A stretch of 34,756 bases of DNA, from contig JAVXWK010000912.1 in assembly GCA_032230575.1 (NCBI GenBank), positions 1 to 34,756 of the forward strand. Direction: 5' to 3'. The notes below the pieces were generated by a model. It was not told the DNA's origin. It saw nothing but the letters and a program-made list of their open reading frames with translations, and made no database searches. This DNA comes from Pseudonocardiales bacterium (lineage in GTDB: Bacteria > Actinomycetota > Actinomycetes > Mycobacteriales > Pseudonocardiaceae). The position numbers and the translations under genes are program-made. Shown piece after piece: positions 12,248 through 16,485 of this stretch (position 1 is the first letter of the stretch; every line of letters begins with the position of its first letter).

Positions 12248-12679
12248 TCAGCAGCGCTTGTCCGTGGCGCCCCACACGTAGTCGGTGACGCCGGAGCCCG
12301 TGCGGATGGTGGCGACGGCCTTGGTGCACTTGTCGAGCGTGGCCGCGCCCGCGCCCCACAGCTCCTGCTTGCCGGTGGCCTGGCCGCCACCGTGCGGGAT
12401 CTCCTCGCCGCCGCTGAACTCCGCGATCCAGTTGCTGGTGCTGACGTTGCGGTGCGAGCTGTAGAACGAGTCCCACACCCACAGGTACGGGTAGTTCTTG
12501 CCGCAGCCGGCGAACTGCTTCACAGAGCCGATCTGCTTGCCCTGGTAGGTGATGGCGCCGGTGGAGCCGATCTGCTTGGCAGAGGCACAACCGGGGACGG
12601 ACTCGGCGTTGGCGGTGCCAACTCCGACGGACAGCAGCGTCGCGGCCAGTGCGGCGGCGAGGGCAAGTGGCTTTCTCAC
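12248..12679 (-). CDS. Small secreted hypothetical protein (143 aa, 4 Cys)
   Basis: Sec signal MRKPLALAAALAATLLSVGVGTANA; mature part looks beta-rich and has four cysteines, the last being the C-terminal residue. Confidence 0.8.
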   Translation of the reverse strand: MRKPLALAAALAATLLSVGVGTANAESVPGCASAKQIGSTGAITYQGKQIGSVKQFAGCGKNYPYLWVWDSFYSSHRNVSTSNWIAEFSGGEEIPHGGGQATGKQELWGAGAATLDKCTKAVATIRTGSGVTDYVWGATDKRC

Positions 12680-12723: not shown

Positions 12724-13428
12724 TTAGGTCAGGCGCTTGAGCCAGTCCGTGATGATCTGGCGCGACGCCGGGGTGGCGTGCACCCACGTCTGGTGGTTCT
12801 GGTCGGTGTACTTGACCACGAGCCAGCGGCCGTCCTCGAAGTCGATCGTGGTGAGGAACGTCTTGGCCCGCTGCCGGCCCTCGCCGTTGCGCTTCGCCGC
12901 GTACAGCTTCGCAGTGCCCTTGCGGGGCTGGGCGAGCAGCTGACGCAGCGAGATCGACGGCGACGCCTTGCCCGGCTGGTGCACGTTGATCTCGGACTCG
13001 TGCACGTTGATCGACGCGCCACGACCCGCCGGGACGTCCGGCAGCTGCATCGCGAGGACCTCCGGCGCGTTCTCCGGCCGGATCGGGTGCAGCTGCACGA
13101 ACCCGTTGTCGTGCACGGCGAGGACGCCGTGCTGCGAGTTCGCCGCGACCACCACGGGCTTGGTCTCGCTCGGCGTGACCGCGATCCACGCCGAGTAGTC
13201 GTGGTCCGCCTTGGCGATCAGGTGCAGCGTGCCCCGCACGTCCGGATGATCGAGCCCGACCCTGCGCAGCTCGCCGATGACGTCGCGCTCGATCAGCGCA
13301 CGCTCGTCTTCGGTCTCACCGGGCGAGTCGACGGAGAGCGCCGGGTGGTACTCCCCGAGCCGCTCCTGCTTCCACAGCACGTCGAACGCGAGGTCGGACA
13401 GCTGAATGGACGAACGCAGCACGCTCAC
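12724..13428 (-). CDS. espG: ESX secretion-associated protein EspG family chaperone
   Basis: LSDLAFDVLW, HPALSVDSPGET, LPDVPAGRGASINV, IDFEDGRWL, PAS pattern typical of actinomycete EspG; GTGA overlap with the PPE-like gene. Confidence 0.85.
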   Translation of the reverse strand: MSVLRSSIQLSDLAFDVLWKQERLGEYHPALSVDSPGETEDERALIERDVIGELRRVGLDHPDVRGTLHLIAKADHDYSAWIAVTPSETKPVVVAANSQHGVLAVHDNGFVQLHPIRPENAPEVLAMQLPDVPAGRGASINVHESEINVHQPGKASPSISLRQLLAQPRKGTAKLYAAKRNGEGRQRAKTFLTTIDFEDGRWLVVKYTDQNHQTWVHATPASRQIITDWLKRLT

Positions 13429-14735
13429 CCCCCGATCGTCGGCGGCGCGACCATCGGCATGTCACCGATGATCTCGTTGGTGTTCTCCTCGGTGACCAGG
13501 TAGTCGGCCGACTTGTGCTCCAGGTCGTCCTCCCCCTGTCCCTTCTGACCGTGGCCGCCCATGCCGCCCGCACCGGCGGCACCGCCCCGGCCGGCCGCAC
13601 CGACGCCACCGCGCCCTGCCGCGTTCGGGCCACCCTCCGCGCCCATGCCGCCGAACACCCCGGACTTGCCGCCGGGCTGCTGCGCGTTCGTGCCGCTGCT
13701 GCTGCCCGTGCCGACGCCACCGAGGCCGCCACCGCCGAGCCTGCCGGACCCGCTGCCGCCACCGAACTTGCCGCCCGCGCCGCTGCCGCCGGGACCACCG
13801 GGGCCTCGGCCCGCGCTGCCACCGGGACCACGTCCGCCACCGGTGCCACCGGTGCCGCCGGGACCGCCGATGCCGGGAGGCACGCCGATCGGCGGGATTC
13901 CCGTGTTCGGCGGCCGGTCGATCACGCTGCCGACGGGAGGCTTGTTGCCAGGGGGAAATTCGGAGCGCAGCGGGCTGTCGATGTCTCCGCCGACAGCCTG
14001 GGACGTCGTGGTGTCGTTGCCGCCGGTGATGTTGCCGGGCGGCGTCCACGTGGTGCCGGTCGTGCCCTGCGGGTTGCCGGTCGAGCTCGGGAACGTGGGC
14101 GTACCGTGCGGCATGCTGGAGTTGTCGACGTTGTCGCCGGTCTTGTCCCGGCCGTCGTCGCCACCGGTGTTGGTGACCTCGACCTGCAGGTTGTCGCCCG
14201 TGACGCCGGGGAACTCCTTCGGCAGCTCACCGCGGTTGGTGTTGCTGGCGCTCTGGAACTCGCTGTAGACCTTGCGGTTGTGCGACTCGTCGCTGTTGTA
14301 GGCGTTGACCGAGTCCTCGGTGTCGGTGTCCCACGGGGTCGCGTCGTCCCAGAACCCGGTCTCCGGCTTGCTCTCCGGCATGTTCTTGAGCTGCGACTTG
14401 TTGTGGTTGAACTGGTAGACCTGGTTCGACAGCGAGTGGTCGGCCTGCCGCAGGGAGTCCTGCATCTGGATCATGGCCTGGTTGATCGGGTTGCCCGCGG
14501 CCTGGGCGGCATCCGCGCTGGCGCCGCTCCACGCCTCGCCGAGCGTCTCACCGACCCTCTTGAGCCGGGCCTCGACACCGGCGTAACTCCGCTCGAGCGA
14601 GGAGGCCGTGTTCGCGGCGGCTTGCGCCGACCCGGTGCCGGGGCCAGTCGTCATCAGGGAGTAGATCTGGTACCCCGAGATGCCTTCAGCGCGGGTGGAG
14701 TCCTCGGAGAAACAGCTGGGCGCGGGCCGTGTCAT
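13425..14735 (-). CDS. PPE-domain (type VII substrate) protein with Gly/Pro-rich tail, 436 aa
   Basis: Helical N-terminus with WxG (EAWSGASADAA), long Gly-rich low-complexity region, C-terminal EDDLEHKSADYL...PPTIGG; ATGA overlap with the upstream gene fixes the start at 14735. Confidence 0.82.
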   Translation of the reverse strand: MTRPAPSCFSEDSTRAEGISGYQIYSLMTTGPGTGSAQAAANTASSLERSYAGVEARLKRVGETLGEAWSGASADAAQAAGNPINQAMIQMQDSLRQADHSLSNQVYQFNHNKSQLKNMPESKPETGFWDDATPWDTDTEDSVNAYNSDESHNRKVYSEFQSASNTNRGELPKEFPGVTGDNLQVEVTNTGGDDGRDKTGDNVDNSSMPHGTPTFPSSTGNPQGTTGTTWTPPGNITGGNDTTTSQAVGGDIDSPLRSEFPPGNKPPVGSVIDRPPNTGIPPIGVPPGIGGPGGTGGTGGGRGPGGSAGRGPGGPGGSGAGGKFGGGSGSGRLGGGGLGGVGTGSSSGTNAQQPGGKSGVFGGMGAEGGPNAAGRGGVGAAGRGGAAGAGGMGGHGQKGQGEDDLEHKSADYLVTEENTNEIIGDMPMVAPPTIGG

Positions 14736-15337
14736 TTCGCACCTGCCTTGATCGTGGTGATGGCGAGATTGGCGAACTCGGCGACCGCAGCACACGGGTC
14801 CGCGTACTTGGGACTGCCCTTGTCGCTCTGGAAGGTGAAGAGGAGGGCCTTCTTGTCGGAGACGCCGGTGAGAACCGAGCAGCCGCCGCCACTGCGCTGG
14901 TCGGACACAAGGGCCATGTACGTGGGATAGCCCTGAATGTCCGGCAGCTGCTCAAACTTCTCGTAGGTCGTGTCCTTGTTGGGGAGGATGGTCGAGATGT
15001 TCGTGTCCTCTGGGAGGAACGCGACCGCCGGAGCCATCCTCGCCGGTGTGCTGGACCCCAGCCACGCGCAGCCTGCTCCGAGGTCGGTGTTGTTCACCCT
15101 CCCGGTCACCCCGGGCAGTCCGAACGCCTGCACCTGAGCCGCGGTGACCGTGCTGCACGGATCGGCCTCGAAGACCTTCACGTCGAGCGGGTTCTGAACC
15201 TTGGGCGCTCCGCCGCTATCGCTCGCGCTCGTCGGCGTGGTCGCGGTGGTCGGCGTGCCAGTGGTCCCGCCACCGGTGTTGCAACCAGCCAGCAGTGCGA
15301 ACGCGGCGGTACCGACGACGATGGTTCGGATGCGCAA
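14732..15337 (-). CDS. DUF3558 family lipoprotein
   Basis: Lipobox LAGC, Thr-rich tether, APKVQNPLD...DPC, then GCAW, IQGYPT, GCSV and DPCAAV, the four-Cys pattern of DUF3558. Confidence 0.85.
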   Translation of the reverse strand: MRIRTIVVGTAAFALLAGCNTGGGTTGTPTTATTPTSASDSGGAPKVQNPLDVKVFEADPCSTVTAAQVQAFGLPGVTGRVNNTDLGAGCAWLGSSTPARMAPAVAFLPEDTNISTILPNKDTTYEKFEQLPDIQGYPTYMALVSDQRSGGGCSVLTGVSDKKALLFTFQSDKGSPKYADPCAAVAEFANLAITTIKAGAK

Positions 15338-15341
15338 CAGC

Positions 15342-15647
15342 TCAGTCCTTCGGCTTGAGGTTTGCCTGGTTGCCCTGCTCAGTCCGCTCGTACTGAGCCA
15401 GCGTGGCCTTCAGGTTGTCGATCCTGGTGGTCAGAGCGTCCTGAAGCTGCTTGTTCGAGTCCTGGTGCGCTTTGCCCGCAGACGCCGCCCAGTTCGCGTA
15501 GACCTGGCTCGGCACGTCCCTGCCGGCGCCCTTGACCGTGGTCAGCACCTGACCGTTCGTATGGGCCAGCGACAGCTCGTCCTTGATCGACTCGTACTCC
15601 TTGATGGCAGCACGCAGTGTGTCGAGATCGACCTTGGTCCCACTCAT
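15342..15647 (-). CDS. PE-like / WXG100-like small type VII substrate (101 aa)
   Basis: ATG 15647 after AAGGAGG; about 100 aa helix-turn-helix character, central GAGRDVPS turn and C-terminal YxxxE secretion motif (YERTE). Confidence 0.8.
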   Translation of the reverse strand: MSGTKVDLDTLRAAIKEYESIKDELSLAHTNGQVLTTVKGAGRDVPSQVYANWAASAGKAHQDSNKQLQDALTTRIDNLKATLAQYERTEQGNQANLKPKD

Positions 15648-15789
15648 CCCCAGTACCCCTCCTTGCAGATTCGTGCGTCGAACAGCATAGCGCCGGGTCA
15701 GGGGCGTTGTCCGGGGTTCAAGGCACGATCGGGTGAACAAGACGAAGTGTCACCGACGCATTGCGACAAGTGAGGGTACGAACAGCTGC

Positions 15790-16485
15790 ATGCTTCGTTC
15801 ATTGGCGCTTTTCGTCAGCGCCGCATTGCTGCTCGTCTCGTGTTCGTCGGTCGAACCGAAGGCGGTTCCCGCCAAGCTCACGCCGCCGACCCCCGCGGTC
15901 GGCCCGCAGGAGAACTGCGAGAACGTGCTCACGGGTGATCCGGAGTCGTGCGTCCCGTGGACCGCGCCCGAACCACACGGCTTCGCCCAGGTGCTGCCCA
16001 TCAACGGCGAGGAAGCGGGCACCGGTAAGGAAGCGCAGTGGGGTCCCTATTACTGGTGTGCCGCCATCACTGACGATGTCGCCGAGAAAGTCCTGGGCAC
16101 CAGAGACGTCATCCGAGTGGTCACCGGTAAGTTCTCCTGCCGAATTGCATTGGGCAAGAAGTCCGGTCTCGACAACACTCTGAGTGTTTATCTGTCGCCC
16201 TACCAGCCCGGAAATGGCGCATACGACTGGTTCGTGGAGCCGAACCCGCTCGGCACGGTGACGCAGGTGAAGGGACGCAAGGCGGTGCGCACCGAGATGC
16301 CTCGGTTCGACTCGATCGACCGCGCCTCCTACACCATCGAGATCCCGGACCACGGGTCCGCGTGGAACATCGAACTGCGCCGCGGCCCGGCCGACACCAA
16401 GACGGCGTTCAAGGCCGACTACGACGACGCTGACCGGAAGGTGCTGGTGGCCGCCGACGCGCTGATGGCCTACGACCGGACCTGA
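15790..16485 (+). CDS. Putative lipoprotein (231 aa), possibly DUF3558-like fold
   Basis: Lipobox LVSC after a hydrophobic stretch, Pro-rich linker, four further Cys, VKGRKAV segment; divergent from the PE-like gene. Confidence 0.75.
   Translation: MLRSLALFVSAALLLVSCSSVEPKAVPAKLTPPTPAVGPQENCENVLTGDPESCVPWTAPEPHGFAQVLPINGEEAGTGKEAQWGPYYWCAAITDDVAEKVLGTRDVIRVVTGKFSCRIALGKKSGLDNTLSVYLSPYQPGNGAYDWFVEPNPLGTVTQVKGRKAVRTEMPRFDSIDRASYTIEIPDHGSAWNIELRRGPADTKTAFKADYDDADRKVLVAADALMAYDRT

Follow-up and report, generated by a model that had tools for sequence, protein, structure and literature searches.

Type VII (ESX) secretion systems export PE and PPE proteins as heterodimers, which carry a composite WxG plus YxxxD/E signal and are chaperoned by EspG; the small partner of such a heterodimer is usually viewed as a mere secretion escort. 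We analysed a four-gene module of this type, in which a DUF3558 lipoprotein gene stands between a PE-like and a PPE-like gene, in a 34,756-nt stretch of contig JAVXWK010000912.1 (assembly GCA_032230575.1; the whole stretch is called the window below). The host genome was placed by named homologues in Lentzea, family Pseudonocardiaceae. Between species, the PE-like and lipoprotein genes of this module move as a pair, separately from the genes at its flanks.

The closest described gene sets are three PE-DUF3558-PPE operons of the SigM regulon of Mycobacterium abscessus (Mab_0012c-0010c, Mab_1828-1830 and Mab_1896c-RS09705-1895c), reported together with a separate PE-PPE-EspG operon, Mab_0149c-0147c (PMC13491425). 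In its accessible part this 2026 paper leaves the DUF3558 function to directed study, suggesting a chaperone or an effector, and contains no DUF3558 lipoprotein immunity, allelic swapping, orphan pairs or arrays. Lipoprotein immunity is described, in the available text of the respective papers, for EatA/TapA1/TapA2/EatI of M. abscessus, where EatI protects in the cognate combination only (PMC13444075), and for TslA/TlaA1/TlaA2/TilA of Staphylococcus aureus, where the TilA family occurs in variable tandem arrays (PMC10730906). MidA (Msmeg0070), related to esx1 self-identity in Mycobacterium smegmatis, is polymorphic, ESX-linked and swapped between strains, as is the PE-lipoprotein pair analysed here; it is a Pro-rich transmembrane protein, unlike the module proteins, with no homology shown (PMC9040860, accessible part). 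A survey of ESX evolution, as far as its available text goes, mentions non-mycobacterial espG, pe and ppe only in ESX-4evol clusters of mycolate-bearing species (PMC4791881).

The four genes of the window module lie on the minus strand in the order PE-like, DUF3558 lipoprotein, PPE-like, espG:

15342..15647, minus strand: 101-aa PE-like protein, a helical hairpin and candidate allele-specific subunit (Pfam PE over cut-off; 71% mean identity, 27 orthologues).
14732..15337, minus strand: DUF3558 lipoprotein, 201 aa, TTG start, candidate cognate immunity protein or receptor (Pfam E 1.4e-25).
13425..14735, minus strand: PPE-like protein, 436 aa, with a helical domain (residues 1-170), a disordered Pro/Gly linker, a conserved C-terminal motif and no enzyme domain (Pfam PPE at cut-off).
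12724..13428, minus strand: EspG-family chaperone, 234 aa, private to the module (Pfam E 2e-43).

A first-pass annotation, made from the letters of the window, had described four coupled genes with a YxxxE motif on the 101-aa protein, a WxG motif on the PPE-like protein and an EspG of their own. The coordinates and sequence agree on the junctions (a 4-nt gap between PE and lipoprotein, an ATGA overlap between lipoprotein and PPE, a GTGA overlap between PPE and espG), and sequence and Pfam confirmed the motifs and the EspG. The profile searches that it had proposed placed PE (E 1e-7, 32.6 bits vs cut-off 22), DUF3558 (PF12079, 90.7 bits vs cut-off 34.1) and EspG (PF14011, E 2e-43) over cut-off and PPE just at it (E 1e-5, 26.1 bits vs cut-off 26; WXG100 below cut-off). 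The module therefore encodes the parts of a type VII substrate set: a small helical protein with a C-terminal YxxxD/E, a PPE-type helical domain with a WxG turn (model confidence low) and an EspG-family chaperone. Since the Pro-Glu and Pro-Pro-Glu signatures are absent from the two N-termini, the names PE-like and PPE-like are used. No ecc or mycP gene was detected among the 31 window proteins scanned with Pfam, as the first pass had also read. In 39 of 43 related loci the four genes keep this order and lie between folC-DUF4233 and phoD, so that the module is not a chance arrangement; three of the other loci end short upstream, and one (L055) is without PE, lipoprotein and PPE. In this last locus, from one Lentzea species (L055:3941-7684), the three genes were lost jointly, an inverted small WXG-like gene set stands instead, and espG is kept at 85% identity.

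The module resembles the M. abscessus operons, as given in the accessible text on them, in the DUF3558 gene between PE and PPE and in the satellite position away from an ESX core, and differs from them in having espG within the operon and no NlpC/P60 or Tle1-like gene after it. With mycobacterial PE25-PPE41-EspG5 and PE5-PPE4-EspG3 it has in common the PE YxxxE, the PPE WxG, a five-helix N-terminal domain and an EspG-family chaperone; unlike these sets, it is without the Pro-Glu/Pro-Pro-Glu signature and has a lipoprotein partner. The host presumably has no mycolate outer membrane, unlike mycobacteria. The EatA and TslA systems are similar as four-gene type VII cassettes with helical partners and a lipoprotein, and TilA-like arrays occur in the module's relatives; however, according to the available descriptions both systems carry an enzyme toxin domain that is blocked by the lipoprotein, while the module has none and its variable partner is the small helical subunit. 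EatI, as described in that text, is a 10-strand beta-sandwich, and the predicted fold of the module lipoprotein is different. The gene set itself is known already, from annotation and from the accessible part of one 2026 paper (PMC13491425); the PE-lipoprotein coupling, the orphan PE-lipoprotein pairs and the lipoprotein arrays are new relative to the literature searched. The literature search, with subscription papers and supplements outside its reach, found no paper on these Pseudonocardiaceae modules, their PE-lipoprotein coupling, orphan pairs, arrays, or DUF3558 as immunity. The module stands outside the known type VII toxin-immunity systems because it has no toxin domain, and its genomics is like that of one.

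In 27 orthologous loci the mean identity was 91% for EspG, whose tree follows the flanking genes, 91% for FolC and 90% for PhoD, versus 71% for PE, 63% for the lipoprotein and 74% for PPE. Trees, synonymous divergence (dS) and correlations were obtained from 36 loci, 8 of 44 having been dropped as incomplete or broken. The dS was 0.54-0.64 in PE, the lipoprotein core and PPE residues 1-60 versus 0.25-0.36 in the flanks, and the distance correlation was 0.74 between PE and lipoprotein versus 0.23-0.38 between lipoprotein and flanks. The PE and lipoprotein trees have 17 of 33 splits in common, and each has only 3-4 in common with the flank tree; lipoprotein and PPE 1-60 trees share 9. By the approximately unbiased (AU) test, the lipoprotein data fit the PE tree (p 0.997) and reject the PPE and EspG trees (p <= 0.003). 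In a sliding test the signal of the lipoprotein tree was 5-9 log-likelihood (lnL) units per codon in PE, 250-440 nt away and with third codon positions included, and 0.5-2.2 per codon in PPE, 130-250 nt away; in PPE it fades within 130-310 nt, the remainder in residues 19-79 being at first and second positions only. Single loci illustrate the exchange: L019 is a close relative with distant alleles (EspG 99%, FolC 96%, PE 70%, lipoprotein 60%), and L046 is a distant relative with close alleles (flanks 91%, PE 90%, lipoprotein 82%). Tree sharing, sliding signal and the family-wide adjacency described below support the first-pass idea of the lipoprotein as a cognate partner. Its refuting condition assumed co-variation of lipoprotein and PPE; the lipoprotein co-varies mainly with PE, not PPE. 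An immunity candidate that co-varies with the cargo, as in type VII toxin-immunity systems, is thus present, with linkage not fully excluded.

Control modules from other Lentzea loci were compared (13-17 loci each, largely from the same genomes; kin genomes are not independent). EspG was 89-94% identical throughout. The PE identity across Lentzea was 86% and 89% in two modules without a lipoprotein, and three other lipoprotein modules gave PE/lipoprotein identities of 93/85, 79/61 and 54/56%. PE is hypervariable only where a lipoprotein is present, and PE and lipoprotein vary in step; in three of four modules the PE tree is the best fit for the lipoprotein. These data bear on the idea that there is no cognate interaction at all, the genes being weakly constrained neighbours in a recombination-prone spot and the arrays gene-accordion noise. 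On either side of the module accessory genes are present in some loci and missing from others, and positive selection was not detected, but the conservation of PE where the lipoprotein is absent, the asymmetric tree signal (PE vs PPE) and the PE-lipoprotein adjacency kept in both gene orders and without PPE speak against it, and we give mere linkage hardly any credence.

The 41 Pseudonocardiaceae genomes searched, which represent 40 genera, all have DUF3558 over cut-off, at 2-55 matches per genome. From the best 150 of 596 matches, 62 loci were hand-picked, with G031, the host genome (G000) and G010 excluded, and annotated with our own profiles. PE lies upstream and PPE downstream of the lipoprotein in 42 loci, PE lies downstream in 14, PE lies upstream with no PPE next to the lipoprotein in 5, and one locus, at a contig end, has neither neighbour. 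PE adjoins the lipoprotein in 61/62 loci, PPE without PE was found in 0/62, and a lipobox-like motif is present in 59/62 lipoproteins. The embedded lipoprotein is the family default; the first pass had called its place between PE and PPE unusual, whereas this is the order of the 42 loci and occurs in M. abscessus too, in the accessible part of the account (PMC13491425). A metagenome scan gave only 4 further loci, which were left out of the analysis.

Array and orphan-pair loci were chosen for looking clustered and give no frequency estimate. G031 has 56 DUF3558 matches vs 16 EspG, and its arrays of 3-6 lipoproteins follow PE or lie between PE and PPE. At its locus L090, which has neither PPE nor EspG nearby, one PE is followed by six lipoproteins (58-94% identical among the comparisons listed), and elsewhere in this genome EspG-PE is followed by at least 4 lipoproteins, and PE by two and three lipoproteins before a PPE. 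The repeated order PE-lipoprotein-PE-lipoprotein-PPE-EspG occurs in G031 and G064, three lipoproteins in tandem plus several pairs in G048, and one pair in G066; G038, G059 and G045 have no tandem lipoproteins. Ten PPE-less PE-lipoprotein units were detected in G031, G041 and G051, nine of them with an intact YxxxD/E end, and in G041 an orphan PE falls into one subfamily with a full module at another site. Orphan cassettes and diverged tandem copies of the immunity candidate, as in type VII toxin-immunity systems, are seen in G031, G048, G041 and others, and not in the Lentzea modules examined.

The arrays also count against another explanation, in which the lipoprotein is devoted to the anchoring or assembly of its own PE:PPE: it would take over the pair after export and keep it on the surface, where the pair, exposed to phages or predators, would diversify under their pressure and have to remain compatible. 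One lipoprotein per Lentzea module, 14 of 17 over-cut-off DUF3558 genes lying within 2 kb of an espG in two complete genomes, translational coupling that implies joint synthesis, variable PE residues on exposed helix faces and a lack of nonsynonymous-to-synonymous ratios (dN/dS) above 1 would all suit an anchor, and a chaperone role is among the options named in the accessible text of PMC13491425. Six diverged copies behind one PE and PPE-less PE-lipoprotein pairs are left unexplained by it, and the existence of PE-PPE-EspG modules without the lipoprotein means that this is not a general secretion factor. We regard an anchor as rather improbable. The swaps, stand-alone pairs and arrays together likely mark an undescribed self/non-self pair, similar to toxin and immunity although without a toxin domain. 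In its specific form, in which the exported PE:PPE harms non-kin and the lipoprotein is an allele-specific immunity protein between related strains, this reading has in our judgment an even chance of being correct.

The signal for lipoprotein export was located in the window as follows:

15281..15292, minus strand: lipobox LAGC with Cys19 (from sequence; nearly invariant in 76 homologues).

Proteins with a lipobox cross the membrane by Sec and are placed on its outer face, so that a lipoprotein of this kind meets its partner only after the partner's export. The mature domain has four invariant cysteines, and its structure model is confident (predicted local distance difference test, pLDDT, 88). 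The predicted fold class is PsbP/Mog1p/DcrB-like, with matches to DIP2269 (Z 8.6), TiME (8.5), the PknH ectodomain (8.2) and the type VI secretion immunity protein Tsi3 (Z 7.6, root-mean-square deviation 3.4 A, 109 aligned residues), at deviations of 3.4-3.8 A over the set. DIP2269, TiME, the PknH ectodomain, Tsi3 and LpqN have the same predicted fold as the lipoprotein domain and are only 6-14% identical to it, and a common fold shows no function. As modelled, the PsbP/DcrB-like domain has a surface fold that would bind proteins, and it would suit an immunity, receptor or chaperone role equally well. Foldseek gave no match to the model at E <= 0.001, the PDB sequence search no meaningful match, and the ESM Atlas, with homologue P0003 as query, only unnamed actinobacterial clusters, with DUF2020/DUF6215 leads under 0.9. 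Longer, fused lipoprotein forms were found 0 times among 7997 candidates, which is weak evidence. Strong DUF3558 matches, with tandem pairs, are also present in mycobacterial genera (L088 in G030, and seven genomes of these genera).

The PE-like protein varies mostly in residues 19-40 and on helix faces that are exposed, the mean pairwise difference over the 36 loci being 0.52 in residues 19-40 vs 0.04 in residues 1-18, with up to 12 residue types at position 33. The conserved and variable parts of the PE-like and PPE-like proteins are:

15378..15392, minus strand: YxxxE secretion motif YERTE, PE residues 86-90 (from sequence; Y86 and E90 invariant in 36 loci).
15528..15593, minus strand: hypervariable PE residues 19-40, end of helix 1 and hairpin (mean pairwise difference 0.52).
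14523..14531, minus strand: WxG motif W69-S70-G71 of the PPE-like protein, turn between helices 2 and 3 (W69 and G71 invariant; a loop in the model).
14331..14354, minus strand: hydrophobic tip FWDDATPW between helices 4 and 5 of the PPE-like protein, putative EspG-binding site (D130, P134 and W135 invariant).
13428..13550, minus strand: acidic C-terminal motif of the PPE-like protein, ending in APPxIGG (dN/dS 0.10).

The PPE model has five helices within residues 15-168 (21-29, 34-68, 74-115, 127-130 and 137-168), at low confidence, and residues ~180-395 are Pro/Gly-rich and disordered in it; the full model (pLDDT 43) was too poor for a fold search, and the PDB sequence matches, PPE4 and PPE41, were weak (E 0.065-0.6). 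The hydrophobic tip is presumably the EspG-binding site, judging from its position in PE25-PPE41-EspG5 structures. The first pass had described a Gly-rich tail with no recognisable toxin domain; no such domain was found on the exported protein, and the description of the tail was incomplete, since conservation within the protein is highest in its last 40 residues (dN/dS 0.10). Relatives were collected by profile search (421 clusters, best 150 analysed), and the longest among these 150 has 516 aa. The acidic end motif was detected by our own profile in 97 of 121 long relatives; the 24 without a profile match have, by eye, mostly the same motif, truncations or frameshifts. A Pfam scan of 17 PPE relatives gave PPE or WXG100 only. 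An apparent PPE-EspG fusion in G003 was rejected as frameshift read-through. A WXG100-like protein of the ESX core on host contig C456 (L070:7052-7210) also ends in an acidic APPxIG motif, and this motif may be a general second signal of substrates of this kind.

Under the immunity reading, the PE-like and PPE-like proteins would pair as a helical bundle, and the module's own EspG would likely stabilise the pair and shield the hydrophobic tip until an ESX core encoded elsewhere exports it. The lipoprotein, exported by Sec and probably anchored outside, would bind directly to the bundle at its variable middle part, formed largely by PE 19-70 together with some of PPE 19-60. The helical bundle itself would do the harm from outside, most simply at the membrane, with kin protected by the lipoprotein; stand-alone PE may pair in trans with the resident PPE and give new alleles, and extra lipoproteins may widen the protection. 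A wider version is tentative and more doubtful than its core: multi-locus kin discrimination without a toxin domain in Pseudonocardiaceae, and probably in rapidly growing mycobacteria, in which a less variable PPE would carry the ~100-residue PE as an exchangeable warhead or mark of identity, DUF3558 would be an allele-specific immunity family, and stand-alone PE-lipoprotein cassettes would add specificities in trans. If true, this would give PE/PPE proteins an ancestral, competitive function and DUF3558 an assignment, and the small partner of a type VII heterodimer would carry specificity. It bears on the role of PE/PPE before their expansion in pathogenic mycobacteria and on that of DUF3558, and the modules in all 41 genomes searched by the lipoprotein marker, those of harmless soil bacteria, provide a natural allele series.

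Several observations weigh against allele-specific immunity. The module and the best 150 PPE relative clusters have no toxin domain, which leaves the would-be killing agent unexplained. Site models (our own M1a/M2a and M3 code with three codon-frequency models, limited by extreme GC content at third codon positions and by recombination) gave no codon class with dN/dS above 1 (M2a vs M1a p 0.28-0.95), and the M3 top class, at 0.35-1.07, was never clearly above 1; the pattern thus looks like old alleles kept and exchanged, not like demonstrated rapid adaptation. One lipoprotein module (C128 type) is conserved, with PE at 93%, and the modules without a lipoprotein have the same PE/PPE/EspG build. 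Tree tests are mixed, and neighbouring genes are inherited together in any case: the C837 lipoprotein fits PPE 1-110 as well as or better than PE (AU 0.84 and 0.17), and the lipoprotein tree (AU p 0.49) and the PPE tree (0.60) fit the C887 PE to the same degree. The family-wide partial correlations differ modestly (lipoprotein-PE 0.35, lipoprotein-PPE 0.22), and arrays of at least 3 lipoproteins occur in only two genomes, the Lentzea modules seen holding one each. The fold Z-scores of the lipoprotein are middling, and the non-immunity proteins TiME and PknH ectodomain match too. The tandem DUF3558 pair at L088, the one mycobacterial locus examined, has no PE, PPE or EspG match nearby and is probably LprB/LprC, so that DUF3558 also occurs outside type VII modules.

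Positive kin recognition without killing, modelled on MidA and the SigM/ESX-4 response of M. smegmatis, would explain the same co-inheritance and polymorphism and would require no toxin domain: PE:PPE would be an identity tag that touching hyphae display or pass on, and the lipoprotein a receptor gating DNA transfer, fusion or a contact response. A polymorphic esx1 gene sets conjugal identity (PMC9040860), and the related M. abscessus operons belong to the SigM regulon, contact-induced in M. smegmatis recipients (PMC13491425), both according to the accessible text; the lipoprotein fold is also that of the PknH sensor ectodomain. However, the lipoprotein has no cytoplasmic part and the module no signalling gene, many diverged lipoproteins behind a single PE better fit immunity stockpiling, and no SigM-type consensus lies upstream of the module. 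We consider kin recognition possible and rather unlikely. Nutrient capture, in which the secreted PE:PPE carries a ligand back through a lipoprotein receptor and private alleles prevent piracy, has a precedent in the ExsI-ExiR iron uptake of Corynebacterium glutamicum, a type VII-secreted carrier with a surface receptor (PMC12607788), and phoD neighbours the module. ExiR, though, is a three-helix membrane protein of ~50 kDa and not a lipoprotein (PMC12607788), the modules contain no transporter, and no ligand site is evident, which makes this a very improbable function.

The first-pass reading of a satellite type VII module was supported by ESX cores on other contigs of the host genome, whose assembly is 83% complete. 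Contig C456 carries a complete core (eccE, eccB, mycP, eccD and eccC, over the NCBIfam cut-offs), C246 a second eccB/C/D set, and C677 a third, partial one. The count of paralogous modules that the first pass had proposed found over-cut-off EspG genes on 8 other contigs, 8 in all. Five of these 8 EspG modules hold DUF3558, three in the order PE-lipoprotein-PPE-EspG and two in the order lipoprotein-PE-PPE-EspG. EspG matches number 9-15 in each of the 18 further Lentzea genomes searched. Unlike mycobacteria, with one EspG per ESX system, these hosts have one per module; a private EspG in satellite modules is the rule in these genomes and, contrary to the first pass, which had found it unusual, the norm in Pseudonocardiaceae. 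In the closed genome G003 the sole over-cut-off eccC lies 230 kb from the nearest espG, and in G004, which has four eccC genes, a partial EspG match lies 8 kb from one of them. The closest paralogue of the module (L068, host contig C56; EspG 43%, PE 34%) is a PE-PPE-EspG set without lipoprotein.

Two short elements upstream of the PE-like gene are conserved:

15684..15689, minus strand: TATGCT, putative -10 element of the module promoter (present in almost all of the 40 upstream regions aligned).
15724..15737, minus strand: upstream box TTCACCCGATCGTG, possible regulator site (conserved in most of the 40 upstream regions).

The box presumably resembles a BldD box, hinting at developmental control. 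A generic sigma-70 promoter and terminator scan of the module gave no full promoter and no terminator, and the SigM-type promoter GGAAC-N16-18-CGTCR was absent from the 130 nt before the PE gene in the loci aligned. A SigM-like match was seen at L070:5745 in the ESX core on host contig C456, right after eccB and ahead of the small helical gene of this core; it is placed as for esxUT in M. abscessus, and chance matches were common in the scan. In four metatranscriptome runs, contigs of relatives (80-95% identity) span all four genes; with shares of 0.05-0.07, DNA carry-over is possible and expression is not claimed.

The DUF4233-PE interval is a variable slot, empty or with unrelated inserts in other loci. 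In the window it holds a divergent lipoprotein gene (15733-16485, plus strand) of no Pfam family, full length in 11 of 44 loci; likeness of its product to DUF3558 was not shown (hhalign probability 17%, 4.4 bits with our own profile). On the other side of the module, the window encodes a 143-aa secreted Cys-containing protein (12248-12679, minus strand) with no Pfam match. It is present in 24 of 44 loci and has 12 paralogous matches on 11 other contigs, and represents an expanded family.

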